Origin: a virus
Virus genome (UHGV): UHGV-0171999
Reading direction: 5' to 3' (one strand)
DNA length: 64,000 nt
Shown: positions 34,780-41,770 of the stretch, in pieces
How positions within the stretch are numbered: the first letter of the stretch is position 1
How the letters are laid out: the number at the start of each line of letters is the position of its first letter
The notes under the pieces: model-generated
What the model was told of the DNA's origin: nothing
Seen by the model: the letters and a program-made list of their open reading frames with translations, nothing else
Databases searched by the model: none
Program-made: the position numbers and the translations under genes

Positions 34780-35022
34780 ATGAGATTACAACGTCAGAGC
34801 ATTAAAGATTCAGAAGTTAAAGGTAAATGGTATTTTAATATCATCGGTAAAGATTCTGAACTTGTTGAAAAAGCTGAACGTCTTTTGCGTGATATGGGAT
34901 GGGAAGATGAATGCGATGGATGCCCTCTTTATGAGGATGGAGAAAGCGCAGGATTCTGGATTTATCATTCTGACGTCGATCAGTTTAAAGCTGATTGGAA
35001 AATTGTGAAAAAGTCTGTTTAA
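34780..35022 (+). CDS. hypothetical protein, 80 aa
   Basis: ATG after AGGAGAATAAA. Confidence 0.5.
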   Translation: MRLQRQSIKDSEVKGKWYFNIIGKDSELVEKAERLLRDMGWEDECDGCPLYEDGESAGFWIYHSDVDQFKADWKIVKKSV

Positions 35023-35032
35023 GGAAAATAAT

Positions 35033-35862
<830 letters not shown>

Positions 35863-35882
35863 AATAACACGTGGCGGAAAAT

Positions 35883-36230
35883 ATGAATTTTAATTATTAC
35901 CCTATTCTATTAGAAAAAGACGCGAAACAACCAAAATGGCAGGGTCCTCAGTTTATTAAAGGCGTCTATCAATTAGTAGTTCCTAAAGACAAGATTTATA
36001 GCAGTTGTTTCACTGAATCCGCTTGTAGTATTTTTGGTAATAGTTCTCCGTATTGGAATTTTGATATAAAACTAGATAGAAATATCGATATTTGGTTGAA
36101 AGCTATGGATATTGGTAATATCACGTTTGATGAGAATAATTATCATATTATTGGTCGATTTTCTAAGCGCGGTAAAGAATTATATTTCACGCCTGAAATC
36201 GAAAGAAAATTTGATGCTAAACCGTATTGA
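35883..36230 (+). CDS. hypothetical protein, 115 aa, inserted between frd and td
   Basis: Continuous ORF with ATG at 35883 filling a ~410-bp gap where T4 frd and td overlap; no recognisable motif. Confidence 0.5.
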   Translation: MNFNYYPILLEKDAKQPKWQGPQFIKGVYQLVVPKDKIYSSCFTESACSIFGNSSPYWNFDIKLDRNIDIWLKAMDIGNITFDENNYHIIGRFSKRGKELYFTPEIERKFDAKPY

Positions 36231-36274
36231 TTATTAGCTTCATAAAATGTATTATAATTTATATAAGGTACTAA

Positions 36275-37135
36275 ATGAAACAATACCAAGATTTAATTAA
36301 AGACATTTTTGAAAATGGTTATGAAACCGATGACCGAACAGGCACAGGAACAATTGCTTTGTTCGGTACTAAATTACGCTGGGATTTAACTAAAGGTTTT
36401 CCTGCAGTAACAACTAAGAAGCTCGCCTGGAATGCATGCATTGCTGAGCTTCTATGGTTTATTTCCGGTTCTACCAATGTTAATGATTTACGTCTTCGCA
36501 CTCATGGTAGTCTTATTCAAGGTAAAACTATTTGGGACGATAACTATGAAAACCAGGCTAAAGACCTAGGATATCATAGTGGTGAACTTGGTCCTATATA
36601 CGGTAAACAATGGCGTGATTTCGGTGGTGTGGATCAATTAGTTGAAACTATTGATCGTATTAAAAAATTACCAACTGATCGACGTCAAATCGTTTCAGCA
36701 TGGAATCCAGCTGAAATCAATCAAATGGCATTACCGCCCTGTCATATGTTCTATCAGTTTAATGTGCGTAATGGTTATCTTGATTTACAATGGTACCAAA
36801 GAAGTGTAGATGTTTTCTTGGGCTTGCCATTCAACATTGCCTCGTACGCTGCCTTGACGCATATTGTGGCTAAGATGTGTAATCTTATTCCCGGAGATTT
36901 GATATTTTCTGGTGGTAATACTCATATCTATATGAATCACGTAGAACAATGTAAAGAAATTTTGCGTCGTGAACCTATGGATTTATGCGAATTACAATTA
37001 AAATTTCCAGATGAATTTGATGAATGGAACACAGAATCGCAGGTATTTTGGTTGAGTCAATTCGCAAAGCCGCATAATTTTGTTCTTAACAACTACGTAT
37101 CTCACCCGCCAATTAAAGGAAAAATGGCGGTGTAA
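36275..37135 (+). CDS. td: thymidylate synthase, 286 aa, uninterrupted
   Basis: Active-site region ALPPCH, 286-aa continuous ORF; no intron. Confidence 0.95.
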
Positions 37136-37419: not shown

Positions 37420-37699
37420 ATATAAATCCGACTTTGATGTTAATATTCACCGTGGTACATTTTGGGGGAATTACGTCGGTAAAGATGCTGGCAGCCGGGA
37501 GGCTGCCATTGAATTATTCAAAAAAGATTTTATACGTCGAATTAAATCCGGAGAAATAACTAAAGCACATTTAGAGCCTTTACGTGGAATGAGGCTAGGA
37601 TGCACATGTAAACCAAAGCCGTGTCATGGTGATATAATAGCTCATATAGTTAACCGATTGTTTAAAGACGATTTTCAAGTTGAGGACTTATGCAATTAA
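37373..37699 (+). CDS. hypothetical protein, 108 aa
   Basis: ORF overlapping neighbours; Cys/His cluster [11 protein letters not shown]; start uncertain. Confidence 0.4.
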
Positions 37700-39954
37700 T
37701 TAATGTTATCAAAAGTAGTGGTGTTTCTCAGAGCTTTGACCCGCAAAAAATTATTAAAGTTTTATCTTGGGCAGCTGAAGGAACATCTGTAGATCCTTAT
37801 GAATTATATGAAAATATTAAATCATATCTCCGTGATGGAATGACCACTGATGACATTCAAACCATTGTAATTAAGGCTGCTGCGAATTCTATTTCAGTTG
37901 AAGAGCCTGATTACCAATATGTAGCTGCACGCTGTTTAATGTTTGCTCTTCGTAAGCATGTTTACGGGCAGTATGAACCACGTTCATTTATTGACCATAT
38001 TTCTTACTGTGTAAATGAAGGTAAATATGACCCTGAATTGTTGTCAAAATATTCTGCTGAAGAAATTACATTTTTAGAATCAAAAATTAAGCACGAGCGG
38101 GATATGGAATTTACTTATTCCGGGGCGATGCAATTAAAAGAAAAATATCTCGTTAAAGATAAAACCACTGGTCAAATTTATGAAACTCCGCAGTTTGCAT
38201 TTATGACTATTGGAATGGCATTGCATCAAGATGAACCTGTTGATAGACTAAAACACGTTATTCGTTTTTATGAAGCGGTATCTACTCGACAGATTTCATT
38301 GCCAACTCCTATTATGGCTGGATGTCGTACTCCAACTCGGCAATTTAGTTCATGCGTTGTTATTGAAGCAGGTGATTCGCTGAAGTCTATCAATAAGGCT
38401 TCTGCTTCAATTGTTGAATATATCTCCAAACGAGCTGGAATCGGCATTAACGTTGGTATGATTCGTGCCGAAGGTTCTAAGATTGGCACAGGTGAAGTGC
38501 GTCATACTGGTGTTATTCCTTTTTGGAAACATTTTCAGACTGCTGTTAAATCATGCTCACAGGGTGGAATTCGTGGCGGCGCTGCTACTGCTTATTATCC
38601 TATTTGGCATTTGGAAGTTGAAAATCTTCTCGTTTTGAAAAATAACAAAGGTGTAGAAGAAAACCGTATTCGTCATATGGATTATGGCGTTCAACTGAAT
38701 GACCTAATGATGGAACGATTCGGAAAGAATGATTACATTACTTTGTTCAGTCCGCATGAAATGGGTGGCGAACTTTATTATTCTTATTTTAAAGACCAAG
38801 ACCGATTCCGTGAATTGTACGAAGCCGCAGAAAAAGACCCTAATATTCGTAAAAAGCGTATTAAAGCCCGTGAACTGTTTGAATTGCTCATGACTGAACG
38901 CTCAGGAACAGCAAGGATTTATGTGCAGTTCATTGATAATACGAATAACTATACTCCGTTTATTCGTGAAAAGGCACCTATTCGTCAAAGTAACTTGTGC
39001 TGTGAAATTGCTATTCCAACAAATGACGTGAATAGTCCTGATGCTGAAATTGGATTGTGTACGTTATCTGCATTTGTGTTAGATAACTTCGATTGGCAAG
39101 ATCAAGATAAAATCAACGAATTAGCAGAAGTTCAAGTTCGTGCTCTTGATAATCTTTTGGATTACCAAGGATATCCAGTTCCTGAAGCAGAAAAAGCTAA
39201 AAAGCGTCGAAATCTTGGTGTAGGTGTTACTAACTATGCAGCTTGGCTAGCAAGTAACTTTGCTTCTTATGAAGATGCTAACGATTTAACACATGAACTA
39301 TTTGAGAGATTACAGTATGGACTCATCAAAGCATCCATTAAGCTCGCCAAAGAAAAAGGACCTTGCGAATATTATTCAGACACTCGTTGGTCTCGAGGCG
39401 AATTACCTATCGACTGGTACAATAAAAAGATTGACCAAATCGCAGCTCCAAAATACGTTTGTGACTGGTCGTCGCTGCGGGAAGACCTTAAGCTCTTTGG
39501 CATCCGTAATAGCACATTATCAGCACTTATGCCATGTGAGTCATCTTCCCAAGTTTCTAACAGTACAAACGGTATCGAGCCTCCACGTGGACCAGTCTCT
39601 GTTAAAGAATCAAAAGAGGGCTCCTTTAATCAAGTCGTGCCCAATATTGAGCATAACATAGACCTATATGATTATACATGGAAATTAGCTAAGAAAGGTA
39701 ATAAACCTTATCTTACGCAGGTAGCTATTATGTTGAAATGGGTATGTCAATCAGCTTCAGCGAATACATATTATGACCCGCAGATTTTTCCAAAAGGAAA
39801 GGTTCCAATGTCAGTAATGATTGATGACATGTTATACGGATGGTATTATGGCATTAAAAATTTCTATTATCATAATACCCGTGATGGTTCTGGTACTGAT
39901 GATTATGAAATAGAAACTCCAAAAGCTGAAGATTGCGCAGCGTGTAAATTGTAA
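37690..39954 (+). CDS. nrdA: aerobic ribonucleotide reductase large subunit, 754 aa
   Basis: Length matches T4 NrdA; class I RNR motifs including C-terminal redox Cys pair (CAAC). Confidence 0.95.
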   Translation: MQLINVIKSSGVSQSFDPQKIIKVLSWAAEGTSVDPYELYENIKSYLRDGMTTDDIQTIVIKAAANSISVEEPDYQYVAARCLMFALRKHVYGQYEPRSFIDHISYCVNEGKYDPELLSKYSAEEITFLESKIKHERDMEFTYSGAMQLKEKYLVKDKTTGQIYETPQFAFMTIGMALHQDEPVDRLKHVIRFYEAVSTRQISLPTPIMAGCRTPTRQFSSCVVIEAGDSLKSINKASASIVEYISKRAGIGINVGMIRAEGSKIGTGEVRHTGVIPFWKHFQTAVKSCSQGGIRGGAATAYYPIWHLEVENLLVLKNNKGVEENRIRHMDYGVQLNDLMMERFGKNDYITLFSPHEMGGELYYSYFKDQDRFRELYEAAEKDPNIRKKRIKARELFELLMTERSGTARIYVQFIDNTNNYTPFIREKAPIRQSNLCCEIAIPTNDVNSPDAEIGLCTLSAFVLDNFDWQDQDKINELAEVQVRALDNLLDYQGYPVPEAEKAKKRRNLGVGVTNYAAWLASNFASYEDANDLTHELFERLQYGLIKASIKLAKEKGPCEYYSDTRWSRGELPIDWYNKKIDQIAAPKYVCDWSSLREDLKLFGIRNSTLSALMPCESSSQVSNSTNGIEPPRGPVSVKESKEGSFNQVVPNIEHNIDLYDYTWKLAKKGNKPYLTQVAIMLKWVCQSASANTYYDPQIFPKGKVPMSVMIDDMLYGWYYGIKNFYYHNTRDGSGTDDYEIETPKAEDCAACKL

Positions 39955-40595
39955 TGAATTATCAAAAAATCTATAACGACCTAATTTCCCGAGCTCAGGC
40001 TCGGGAATCTTTATCAGAATATAAAGAGACACATCATATAATCCCTAAATGTATGGGAGGTTCTGATGATAAAGAAAATTTAGTTGAATTAACAGGTAGA
40101 GAGCATTTTATAGCTCATTGGCTTTTATGCAAAATATATGACACGCCAGGATTAAAGAAAGCTTTTGGTTTAATGTGCTTGACTGGTAAAAATCGCTCAT
40201 ATAAAATTTCTTCTCAACTATACGAATTAGGTAGACGACGTTTATCTGAAGCTGCCATAGGACGTGAAGTTTCTATAGAAACCAGAGAAAAGATAAGTAG
40301 AGCTCTTAAAGGAAGGAAATTTACCAAAGAGCATTTAGCTCGCATGAGAAAACCTAAAACCGAAGAAGCTAAAAAGAATATAGCTGCTGCTAAAGTCGGC
40401 GTGCTTAATCCGATGTATGGTACAATCTCTCCGACAAGAGATGTTCCTCATACTAAAGAAACTCGTGATTTGATTTCTTTGAGAACTAAGCAAGGTACAG
40501 AGTATCCGCCTTGTCCGCATTGTGGCAAGAAAGTTAATAAAGGCAATGCTTTAAGATGGCATTATGATAAATGTAAATTTAAGGATTCTAAATGA
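39954..40595 (+). CDS. HNH homing endonuclease (MobE-like), 213 aa
   Basis: HNH motif HHIIPKCMGGSDDKENLVELTGREHFIAH, then repeated basic helix motifs (NUMOD-like) and C-terminal CPHC; overlaps nrdA stop and nrdB start. Confidence 0.7.
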   Translation: MNYQKIYNDLISRAQARESLSEYKETHHIIPKCMGGSDDKENLVELTGREHFIAHWLLCKIYDTPGLKKAFGLMCLTGKNRSYKISSQLYELGRRRLSEAAIGREVSIETREKISRALKGRKFTKEHLARMRKPKTEEAKKNIAAAKVGVLNPMYGTISPTRDVPHTKETRDLISLRTKQGTEYPPCPHCGKKVNKGNALRWHYDKCKFKDSK

Positions 40596-41770
40596 GTACA
40601 GTTTTTAATACATCCCCTGTTAATATTTTAACTGAGCCGATGTTTTTTGGTTCTGGATTGGGTTTAGCTCGATATGATATTCAACGACATAGAGTATTTG
40701 AAGAACTTATTGAGAAATCTTTATCATTTTTCTGGCGTCCTGAAGAAGTAAACTTAATGATGGATGCTGCGCAATTTAACAAGCTTCCTCAGTATCAGCA
40801 AGATATTTTTACTAATAACCTGAAGTATCAATCACTTTTGGATAGCATTCAGGGTCGTGCACCGTCTGCTGTACTTATGTCATTAATTTCAGACCCAAGC
40901 CTTGATACATGGGTTGCTACGTGGACTTTTAGTGAAACTATTCACAGCCGTTCATATACACATATCATGCGAAATCTTTATACTGATCCATCGAAGGTAT
41001 TTGATGAAATTGTATTAGATGAAGCTATTATGAAACGTGCTGAATCCATTGGACGTTATTATGATGATGTTCTGATTAAAACCCGTGAATGGGAAAATGC
41101 TAAAGAATTTGTAGAACTAGCTAAAGAATCTCCTGATGCTGATTTTCGTTTAAATCGAGCTATTAAACAAGAAGCCGAAGCTAAACGTGCTTTAATGAAA
41201 TCTCTTTACCTCTGCTTGCATGTAATCAACGCATTGGAAGCTATTCGTTTTTATGTATCTTTCGCATGTACCTTTAACTTCCATAAGAACATGGAAATCA
41301 TGGAAGGTAATGCCAAGATTATGAAGTTCATTGCTCGTGATGAACAGCTTCACCTTAAAGGCACTCAATATATTATTCGTCAACTTCAACTTGGCACTGA
41401 TGGTGATGAATGGGTTAAAATTGCTCAAGAGTGTGAACAAGAAGCAGTTGATATTTTCATGGAAGTTAACCGTCAAGAAAAAGACTGGGCAGTTCATTTA
41501 TTTAAAGATGGTGATGTTCCTGGATTAAATACAAATAGCATGTGGAGCTTTATTGATTACTTAACTGTATCTCGTATGAAGCAGTGCGGTCTTCCGTGCC
41601 CAATTACCGATGCTCCGGTTAAACATCCGTATCCTTGGATTCGTGAATATCTTAATTCTGATAATGTTCAATCCGCGCCACAAGAAGTAGAACTGTCATC
41701 TTACCTTGTTGCACAGATTGATAATGATGTTGATGATAAAGTTATGATGAGTTTTAAAAAATATTTTTAA
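40592..41770 (+). CDS. nrdB: aerobic ribonucleotide reductase small subunit, 392 aa, uninterrupted
   Basis: Diiron/tyrosyl-radical R2 fold signatures; continuous ORF, no intron. Confidence 0.93.
   Translation: MSTVFNTSPVNILTEPMFFGSGLGLARYDIQRHRVFEELIEKSLSFFWRPEEVNLMMDAAQFNKLPQYQQDIFTNNLKYQSLLDSIQGRAPSAVLMSLISDPSLDTWVATWTFSETIHSRSYTHIMRNLYTDPSKVFDEIVLDEAIMKRAESIGRYYDDVLIKTREWENAKEFVELAKESPDADFRLNRAIKQEAEAKRALMKSLYLCLHVINALEAIRFYVSFACTFNFHKNMEIMEGNAKIMKFIARDEQLHLKGTQYIIRQLQLGTDGDEWVKIAQECEQEAVDIFMEVNRQEKDWAVHLFKDGDVPGLNTNSMWSFIDYLTVSRMKQCGLPCPITDAPVKHPYPWIREYLNSDNVQSAPQEVELSSYLVAQIDNDVDDKVMMSFKKYF

Follow-up and report, generated by a model that had tools for sequence, protein, structure and literature searches.

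The open reading frame (ORF) that occupies the interval between the dihydrofolate reductase gene frd and the thymidylate synthase gene td in the window (the whole stretch of viral DNA analyzed here, 64,000 nucleotides long) is very probably td.1, a genuine and long-established small Tevenvirinae gene that lives between frd and td. An earlier note on this DNA had presented it as an extra ORF inserted at the frd–td junction; it is instead an already known, widespread and annotated T-even gene, td.1, found at the same locus in its relatives. The T2H td.1 gene (AY262132.2, ABI48932.1) shares with the ORF in the window both its position between frd and td and its length of 115 amino acids, and the substitutions that separate the two are exclusively synonymous, with no material difference between them. 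The T2H record names the product 'hypothetical protein', and the gene is designated RB32ORF229c in RB14, RB32 and RB51, and Shfl2p237 in Shfl2. We note that AY262132.2 appears in PMC2790892 solely as a sequence source.

At the protein level, Td.1 from the window is 100% identical to its counterparts in T2, RB14, AR1 and PP01, among others, with 97–99% identity at the DNA level. Full-length matches to the 412-bp interval, at 80–99% identity, are present in 363 phage records, for the most part those of Tequatrovirus phages that infect Escherichia, Shigella, Yersinia, Salmonella and Citrobacter; an exact copy of the protein occurs on 341 public contigs, always as a 'hypothetical protein'. Residues 4–111 of Td.1 match positions 2–125 of the 126 in the phrog_1928 profile (E = 8.4e-36); PHROG 1928 has no functional annotation, and the window protein and the tandem paralogues described below match the same profile. 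No match to Td.1 was obtained in Pfam, NCBIfam or PADLOC (for PADLOC at E-values of up to 1), and a search of the literature on td.1, RB32ORF229c and phrog_1928 did not find a functional study. As a separate matter of annotation, some public records give td.1 product names that are unsupported ('putative homing endonuclease', 'putative glucose-1-phosphate adenylyltransferase' and 'putative dihydrofolate reductase'), and the names are inconsistent in MZ501089.1, MZ501046.1, NC_054937.1, OR125554.1, MW749001.1 and others.

All three genes of the locus lie on the + strand. The gene frd (35278–35862, 194 amino acids in the ORF list, stop codon TGA at 35860–35862) encodes a protein with 96% amino acid identity to Frd of phage Shf125875, and its counterparts in T2H and Shfl2 bear the annotation frd, while td (36275–37135, 286 amino acids) is uninterrupted and hence intronless. 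The 412-nt gap between them carries a single long ORF, likewise on the + strand, which is td.1 (35883–36230, 115 amino acids, stop codon at 36228–36230, PHROG 1928); the end of frd at 35862, the start of td at 36275 and the extent of the 115-residue ORF had all been given in these terms before, and the ORF list confirms them. Taken mechanically as the longest frame, the td.1 ORF would begin at a GTG codon at 35871 and encode 119 amino acids; judged from the sequence, however, the ATG at 35883 is the better start, because it is preceded by a Shine–Dalgarno-like GGCGGA (35873–35878, + strand, 4 nt upstream of the ATG) and because the homologues start with MNFNYYP. The duplex of this GGCGGA with the 3′ end of 16S rRNA has a calculated free energy of −4.8 kcal mol–1, compared to +0.4 kcal mol–1 for the GTG at 35871, −4.0 kcal mol–1 for td and −3.5 kcal mol–1 for nrdA.1; among the 20-mers of the window, it ranks within approximately the top 10%. 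The same GGCGGA is conserved in KarlGJung and Shf125875, and the minus strand opposite td.1 holds nothing beyond ORFs of 42–48 amino acids. Upstream of frd, we also observe an 81-amino acid ORF (35033–35278, + strand) between frd.1 (DUF5417, 34780–35022) and frd, which matches PHROG 3183 and no Pfam family; it is 'RB32 orf231c-like', and is missing from T4, which has a 71-bp spacer there.

The AT-rich spacer between td.1 and td (36231–36274, + strand) contains promoter-like hexamers and the Shine–Dalgarno sequence of td (AAGG at 36265–36268). Sigma-70-like hexamers are found at 36227–36232 (TTGATT), 36250–36255 (TATTAT) and 36253–36258 (TATAAT), and a MotA-box-like AGCTTCA at 36236–36242; however, promoter and terminator scans of the locus returned sites no more frequently than in shuffled sequence. 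The gap between AGCTTCA and TATAAT is 10 nt, which is below the usual MotA-box consensus distance, and with the MotA-box-like element only 10 nt from the TATAAT we do not claim a middle promoter in this spacer. We note that an AT-rich segment of about 31 nt that includes both TATAAT and AGCTTCA (36234–36264) is shared by the window and KarlGJung but missing from Shf125875 and SF, the td.1–td junctions of which are similar in other respects, and may be a small indel bearing a candidate promoter. Neither an RNA family (Rfam, at the gathering threshold) nor a tRNA gene was found in scans of the whole 64-kb window. From frd to td, the terminator scan of the + strand was no better than for shuffled sequence, and since no terminator-like site on this strand separates td.1 from frd and td, td.1 is probably carried on the same early/middle transcripts as the nucleotide-precursor genes frd–td–nrdA.2–nrdA.1–nrdA–nrdB.

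That td.1 is a real protein-coding gene, rather than a chance ORF in a noncoding spacer or a spacer that is itself regulatory (a promoter or an RNA element for td), follows from several lines of evidence. The lack of Pfam and NCBIfam matches and the promoter-like hexamers in the downstream spacer could both be read in favor of a noncoding interval. Against this, the ratio of synonymous to nonsynonymous differences in td.1 is 10/0 with respect to T2H, 5/0 to Shfl2, 13/1 to KarlGJung and 26/12 to the Mosigvirus phage Shf125875, and on these counts td.1 is under strong purifying selection. A HMMER search of 1.84 billion representative proteins returned 20 related clusters, all of them stand-alone proteins of 95–119 amino acids, once two longer matches (P0021 and P0023) had been discarded as spurious, eukaryote-like repeat proteins; a broadened profile that included the paralogues likewise retrieved solely stand-alone small phage proteins, of 95–148 amino acids, and no domain fusions. 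Across 33 family sequences, down to 26% identity, Q16, W19, G27, G91, K95 and G97 are invariant and Y29, N79, F93 and F102 nearly so, with two conserved motifs, an N-terminal LLExDxxQxKW and a C-terminal GN(I/V)...IGRFxKxGxxxxF, that are both found in the window protein. Together with the Shine–Dalgarno sequence in front of td.1, the absence of an Rfam match and the confident fold that is predicted once a deep alignment is provided, these observations effectively refute the noncoding alternative, to which we assign next to no probability.

The fold in question was predicted by AlphaFold2 from the 33-sequence alignment with a pLDDT of 91.3 and a pTM of 0.84, superseding an earlier run on a 4-sequence alignment that had reached a pLDDT of 61.5. 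The model comprises strands at residues 6–12 and 27–34 and short strands at 48–50 and 62–64, followed by a helix (68–76), a strand (80–82) and a hairpin (86–96 and 99–104). A significant match to this model among solved structures was not found, and the matches in BFVD are to uncharacterized T4-like phage proteins only; TagH, the best PDB-sequence profile match (E = 0.015), we judged to be noise. The profile and fold searches recommended in the earlier note thus delivered the PHROG 1928 match and a confident AlphaFold2 model, with no significant structural match. The weak fold matches are mostly to OB-fold nucleic-acid binders (HIN, Teb1, Cdc13, Rrp40/S1, RecO, RPA and SSB), and the modeled Td.1 would resemble OB-fold domains such as those of SSB/RPA, S1, HIN and Teb1/Cdc13 in the order of its elements (strands, one helix and a C-terminal hairpin), as well as in being a small, beta-rich and mildly basic domain with conserved aromatic and basic residues. 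We take the OB-like barrel suggested by the model as a lead, not as a result. The family alignment contains no conserved Asp, Glu, His, Cys or Ser, and the family is mildly basic, with a median pI of 8.6. Because no such residue is conserved, because the proteins are mildly basic, and because they are never fused to another domain, the sequences argue for Td.1 being a binding protein rather than an enzyme, and against its being a nuclease.

The distribution of the family points to a long residence of td.1 at this locus. A tblastn search with Td.1 returned 581 phage records, 218 of which, from other genera, fall below 60% identity, and in every case inspected the homologue lies between frd and td. 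Homologues at 26–47% identity hold this slot in at least eight other Tevenvirinae genera; td.1-family slot genes are found in Jiaodavirus, Marfavirus, Moonvirus, Gelderlandvirus, Roskildevirus and Mosigvirus, among others, which does not fit the earlier proposal of a new insertion. In many genera frd, the slot gene and td overlap, and td.1 is often found beside a tandem paralogue and a gene for a 68-amino acid protein. In Mineola (Jiaodavirus), for example, the slot holds a 105-amino acid homologue that overlaps both neighbors; in Cronus (Roskildevirus), a 144-amino acid paralogue followed by a 103-amino acid homologue; and in Moon (Moonvirus) and STML-198 (Gelderlandvirus), a homologue and a 115-amino acid paralogue. 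The fullest arrangement is seen in PWKp18 (Marfavirus) and in the metagenomic contig L014, where the order is frd, td.1 (63% identical to the window in L014), a 113–117-amino acid paralogue, a 68/69-amino acid gene, and td; in a further metagenomic contig, L015, a td.1 homologue is also situated between frd and td.

The tandem paralogues (113–144 amino acids; L010:1787–2134, L011:1809–2156, L012:1790–2143, L014:4332–4673 and L009:1059–1493) match PHROG 1928 (E = 8e-33 and 4e-16) and keep the invariant W, G and G..K.G residues of td.1, with an insertion of about 20 amino acids; we note that the inserted stretch carries the motif ALVxxGxxPTIxQFKRxPxxY. The 68-amino acid gene belongs to a different family, PHROG 9550, with approximately 80% amino acid identity across Tequatrovirus, Marfavirus and metagenomic phage (68/69-amino acid gene in fFiEco06 at L006:1348–1554, in PWKp18 at L012:2148–2354, and at L014:4670–4879), and is in this respect better conserved than Frd (approximately 45–48%). 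In the outgroups, identity to the window proteins is 44–48% for Frd, 69–80% for Td and 31–36% for Td.1 (63% for Td.1 of L014), and the identity of td.1 across genera is graded, from 94% through 63–66% and 43–47% to approximately 31–36%. As far as can be judged from these comparisons, the pattern of Frd, Td and Td.1 identities is that expected for a faster-evolving resident gene.

Within Tequatrovirus, the junction exists in more than one state. Our census is based on approximately 513 records with a Tequatrovirus-type frd 3′ end, and uses the span obtained with a 301-nt T4 junction probe. The td.1 state accounts for 363 records (approximately 70%; span of about 717); the state with the 68-amino acid gene alone, in which this gene is ATGA/TAATG-coupled to frd and td (as in fFiEco06 and YUEEL01), for approximately 137 records at ≥95% identity (approximately 26%; span of 507); and the T4-type fused state for 32 records, as counted with a 44-nt probe (approximately 6%; span of 301), about half of which are T4 isolates or duplicates. 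The frd–td slot in Tequatrovirus thus has three alleles: td.1, the 68-amino acid gene, and empty as in T4. On these numbers, and contrary to the earlier claim, the junction is not 'normally fused' in this genus; the description fits T4 alone. In Mosigvirus (RB69-like phages), by comparison, the fused junction is found in approximately 143 of 152 records, and we saw two exceptions, SF and Shf125875. In SF, frd is of the RB69 type, matching RB69 at 193 of 200 nt, and is ATGA-coupled to a td.1 with 94% amino acid and 90% nucleotide identity to the window, followed by a td with 83% identity at its 5′ end. In Shf125875 (L007, a Shigella phage), the frd–td.1 block is Tequatrovirus-like, with Td.1 at 94% amino acid identity to the window; its Td has 86% amino acid identity to the window, and the downstream genes are annotated as RB69-like. 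The sequence of Shf125875 suggests an intergenus recombination breakpoint near the td.1/td boundary.

In T4 itself, frd and td overlap by the 4 nt of an ATGA, as the earlier note had correctly stated, and the window is 416 bp longer than T4 at this point. On either side of this extra DNA, in frd and in td, the window matches T4 at 95–97% identity, with no foreign tract. The T4 and RB69 junctions have the same flanking genes and the same junction motif as the window, in which the frd stop keeps the AAATGAA context. Unlike in T4 and RB69, however, frd and td are parted in the window by 416 bp carrying td.1, and td has its own Shine–Dalgarno sequence and an AT-rich spacer, so that direct translational coupling from frd to td is absent. 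Both ends of the 416-bp indel are bounded by the 8-nt direct repeat AAATGAAA, the copies of which lie 416 nt apart, that is, by the size of the indel. Copy 1, at the end of frd (35857–35870, + strand), has AAATGAAA at 35857–35864 and reads AAATGAAAtAAcAC when extended; copy 2 (36273–36286, + strand), which spans the td start codon, has AAATGAAA at 36273–36280 and the extended form AAATGAAACAATAC. The extended copies agree at 12 of 14 positions. Within copy 1, the window contains a ghost start, ATG-AAA-TAA (35859–35867), where the next gene begins in ATGA-coupled relatives. In SF, which has the AAATGAAA-type microhomology too, the td.1 ATG lies within the frd ATGA (…TATAAATGAATTTTAAT…), exactly at the position of this ghost start, which makes the AAATGAA context an inherent part of each coupled start in the slot. 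In the window, the distance from the frd stop to the td.1 ATG exceeds that in SF by 24 nt, and these additional nucleotides supply td.1 with its own Shine–Dalgarno sequence and leave the two-codon ghost ORF ATG-AAA-TAA. We considered whether the ghost ATGAAA might be a duplicated td start, which would favor insertion, and dropped this idea, as the ATGA-coupled td.1 start of SF matches equally well.

These arrangements are consistent with an ancestral slot that would have held up to three genes, td.1, the 113–117-amino acid tandem paralogue and the 68-amino acid gene, and of which different lineages would have retained different subsets: td.1 in T2-like phages and the window, the 68-amino acid gene only in another group of Tequatrovirus, and no slot gene in T4 and most RB69-like phages. 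Recombination between the short repeat at the end of frd and that at the start of td would remove the slot to leave the fused junction TATAAATGAAACAATAC, and could do so cleanly because every gene of the slot begins within an AAATGA(A) stop/start context. In T4, deletions of this kind, between short direct repeats, are a familiar class of rearrangement. T4 and RB69 share the fused junction TATAAATGAAACAATAC without a difference over 20 nt, in spite of their diverged flanks, which would fit recurrent, independent deletion. Any allele could in addition be passed between coinfecting phages by homologous recombination within the conserved sequences of frd and td, for which Shf125875 provides a likely example. 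The T4 td gene is split by an intron carrying I-TevI, and the fused allele could be cotransferred when the intron homes from a T4-type donor: td.1 is located approximately 0.6 kb from the I-TevI site, and PMC2790892 reports tracts that reach 2 kb. Loss of td.1 does not strictly follow the td intron with I-TevI, since KarlGJung combines the intron with td.1, and fFiEco06 the intron with the 68-amino acid gene. Since td.1-family genes hold the slot across other genera, it is most likely that T4 reached its present frd–td state by deletion, as did most RB69-like phages; the comparison of this junction across T4-like genomes that the earlier note had called for, to date an insertion, thereby points to an occupied slot in at least eight genera and to a loss in T4. 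Taken by itself, however, the repeat-flanked indel reads alike as an insertion or a deletion, and its polarity within Tequatrovirus and Mosigvirus is not proven by the sequences.

A competing history is that td.1 was inserted fairly recently, as cargo, into a junction that was ancestrally fused in the T4/RB69 group, with a T4-like phage of more distant kinship as the source and illegitimate or microhomology-mediated recombination as the route. We consider such a history improbable. It would account for a fused junction that is identical in T4 and RB69 and dominant in Mosigvirus, where td.1 could have been reacquired by recombination into a fused ancestor, and for an indel with an 8-nt direct repeat at either end (matching at 12 of 14 positions in its extended form). 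The 63% identity of the L014 td.1 to the window, though Frd is only 48% identical, and the Tequatrovirus-like frd–td.1 block of the Mosigvirus phage Shf125875, in which the slot appears movable by recombination, point the same way. However, at least eight genera have a td.1-family gene in this very slot, with divergence that is graded between them; the window flanks match T4 without a foreign tract; the frd to which the td.1 of SF is ATGA-coupled is native and of the RB69 type; the AAATGAA repeat comes with the coupled start contexts themselves and would not be a target-site duplication; and the fused state is a 6% minority in Tequatrovirus. A mobile origin of another kind, with td.1 as a degenerate or novel free-standing homing endonuclease, is far less probable still, even though the label 'putative homing endonuclease' is attached to it in two BASEL-collection phages, KarlGJung and AdolfPortmann, and though its presence is variable beside td, a known homing target. 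As with the free-standing homing cassettes of T-even phages (mobE, segG and similar genes; reviewed in PMC2988022), td.1 is a variable small gene between conserved nucleotide-metabolism genes; unlike them, it carries neither a nuclease domain nor a nuclease motif, reaches only half their size, and is conserved in position across genera where such cassettes are sporadic. The 33 family members give no HNH, GIY-YIG, LAGLIDADG or NUMOD matches (Pfam, E-values of up to 1), their alignment lacks a conserved acidic, His or Cys residue, and no nuclease came up in the fold search. With 115 amino acids, Td.1 is about half as long as the free-standing endonucleases that are annotated close by, and td.1 is present with or without the td intron and I-TevI.

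A true HNH/NUMOD3 ORF of the window is located elsewhere, at 39954–40595. This 213-amino acid ORF (+ strand; Pfam HNH, E = 3e-5, and NUMOD3, E = 1e-8) lies between nrdA (37690–39954) and an intronless nrdB (40592–41770), overlapping both, at the position of mobE in T4; T2H has no gene there. From its sequence it looks like a free-standing homing endonuclease, and would be the real mobile-element candidate of this neighborhood. We also note that td (36275–37135) and nrdB (40592–41770) are uninterrupted in the window, and that their T4 counterparts are split by I-TevI/I-TevIII group I introns.

As for what Td.1 does, we put forward, tentatively, a small, beta-rich, noncatalytic protein, possibly OB-like, that would be coexpressed with the thymidylate/dNTP genes and may bind nucleic acid or a partner in thymidylate/dNTP synthesis. 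The main rival to this guess at a nucleotide-metabolism function, which we rate as slightly less probable, is that Td.1 is a host-takeover or counter-defense protein unrelated to nucleotide metabolism, acting, for example, to inhibit a host enzyme or a defense system, and retained or lost according to the hosts that a lineage meets. Many small T-even early genes are of the host-takeover or counter-defense type, and a small, nonenzymatic early-region protein, with presence/absence and allele-replacement polymorphism among close phages, would be in keeping with this; td.1 is, moreover, dispensable under laboratory conditions, because T4 lacks it. On the other hand, no likeness to a characterized inhibitor was found in the profile and structure searches, a fixed, translationally coupled position between frd and td over long evolution would be unusual for fast-turnover cargo, and the family is restricted to T4-like phages, with specific residues conserved. 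The mobile-element or host-interaction role proposed in the earlier note thus draws no backing from nuclease motifs, from a match in a defense library (PADLOC), or from a flanking mobility gene, all of which are absent. Of the accessory cargo gene at a normally fused junction that was envisaged there, what stands is that td.1 is a real gene, variably present in relatives; a fused norm and a new insertion are not borne out, and neither is a mobile or host-directed role. A more adventurous proposal, which we regard as a long shot, is that the Td.1 family (PHROG 1928, with its tandem paralogues) represents an unrecognized or very divergent OB-like fold, acting as an accessory or regulator of dihydrofolate reductase–thymidylate synthase or of the dNTP complex, or shielding the pathway against host defenses that target nucleotides. 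If this were true, natural td.1 knockouts for a direct test would be at hand in T4, in the majority of RB69-like phages and in those that carry the 68-amino acid allele.

Taken together, the apparent insertion arises from the use of T4 as the sole reference, when T4 is the exception at frd–td within Tequatrovirus. As td.1 is already annotated in hundreds of genomes, the discovery value of the ORF is small. The three-allele frd–td slot would derive from an older multigene slot, probably eroded by deletion between stop/start repeats. Td.1 is a conserved orphan in a nucleotide-precursor operon, and its confidently predicted but unmatched fold and the availability of natural knockouts would make it a cheap functional target.
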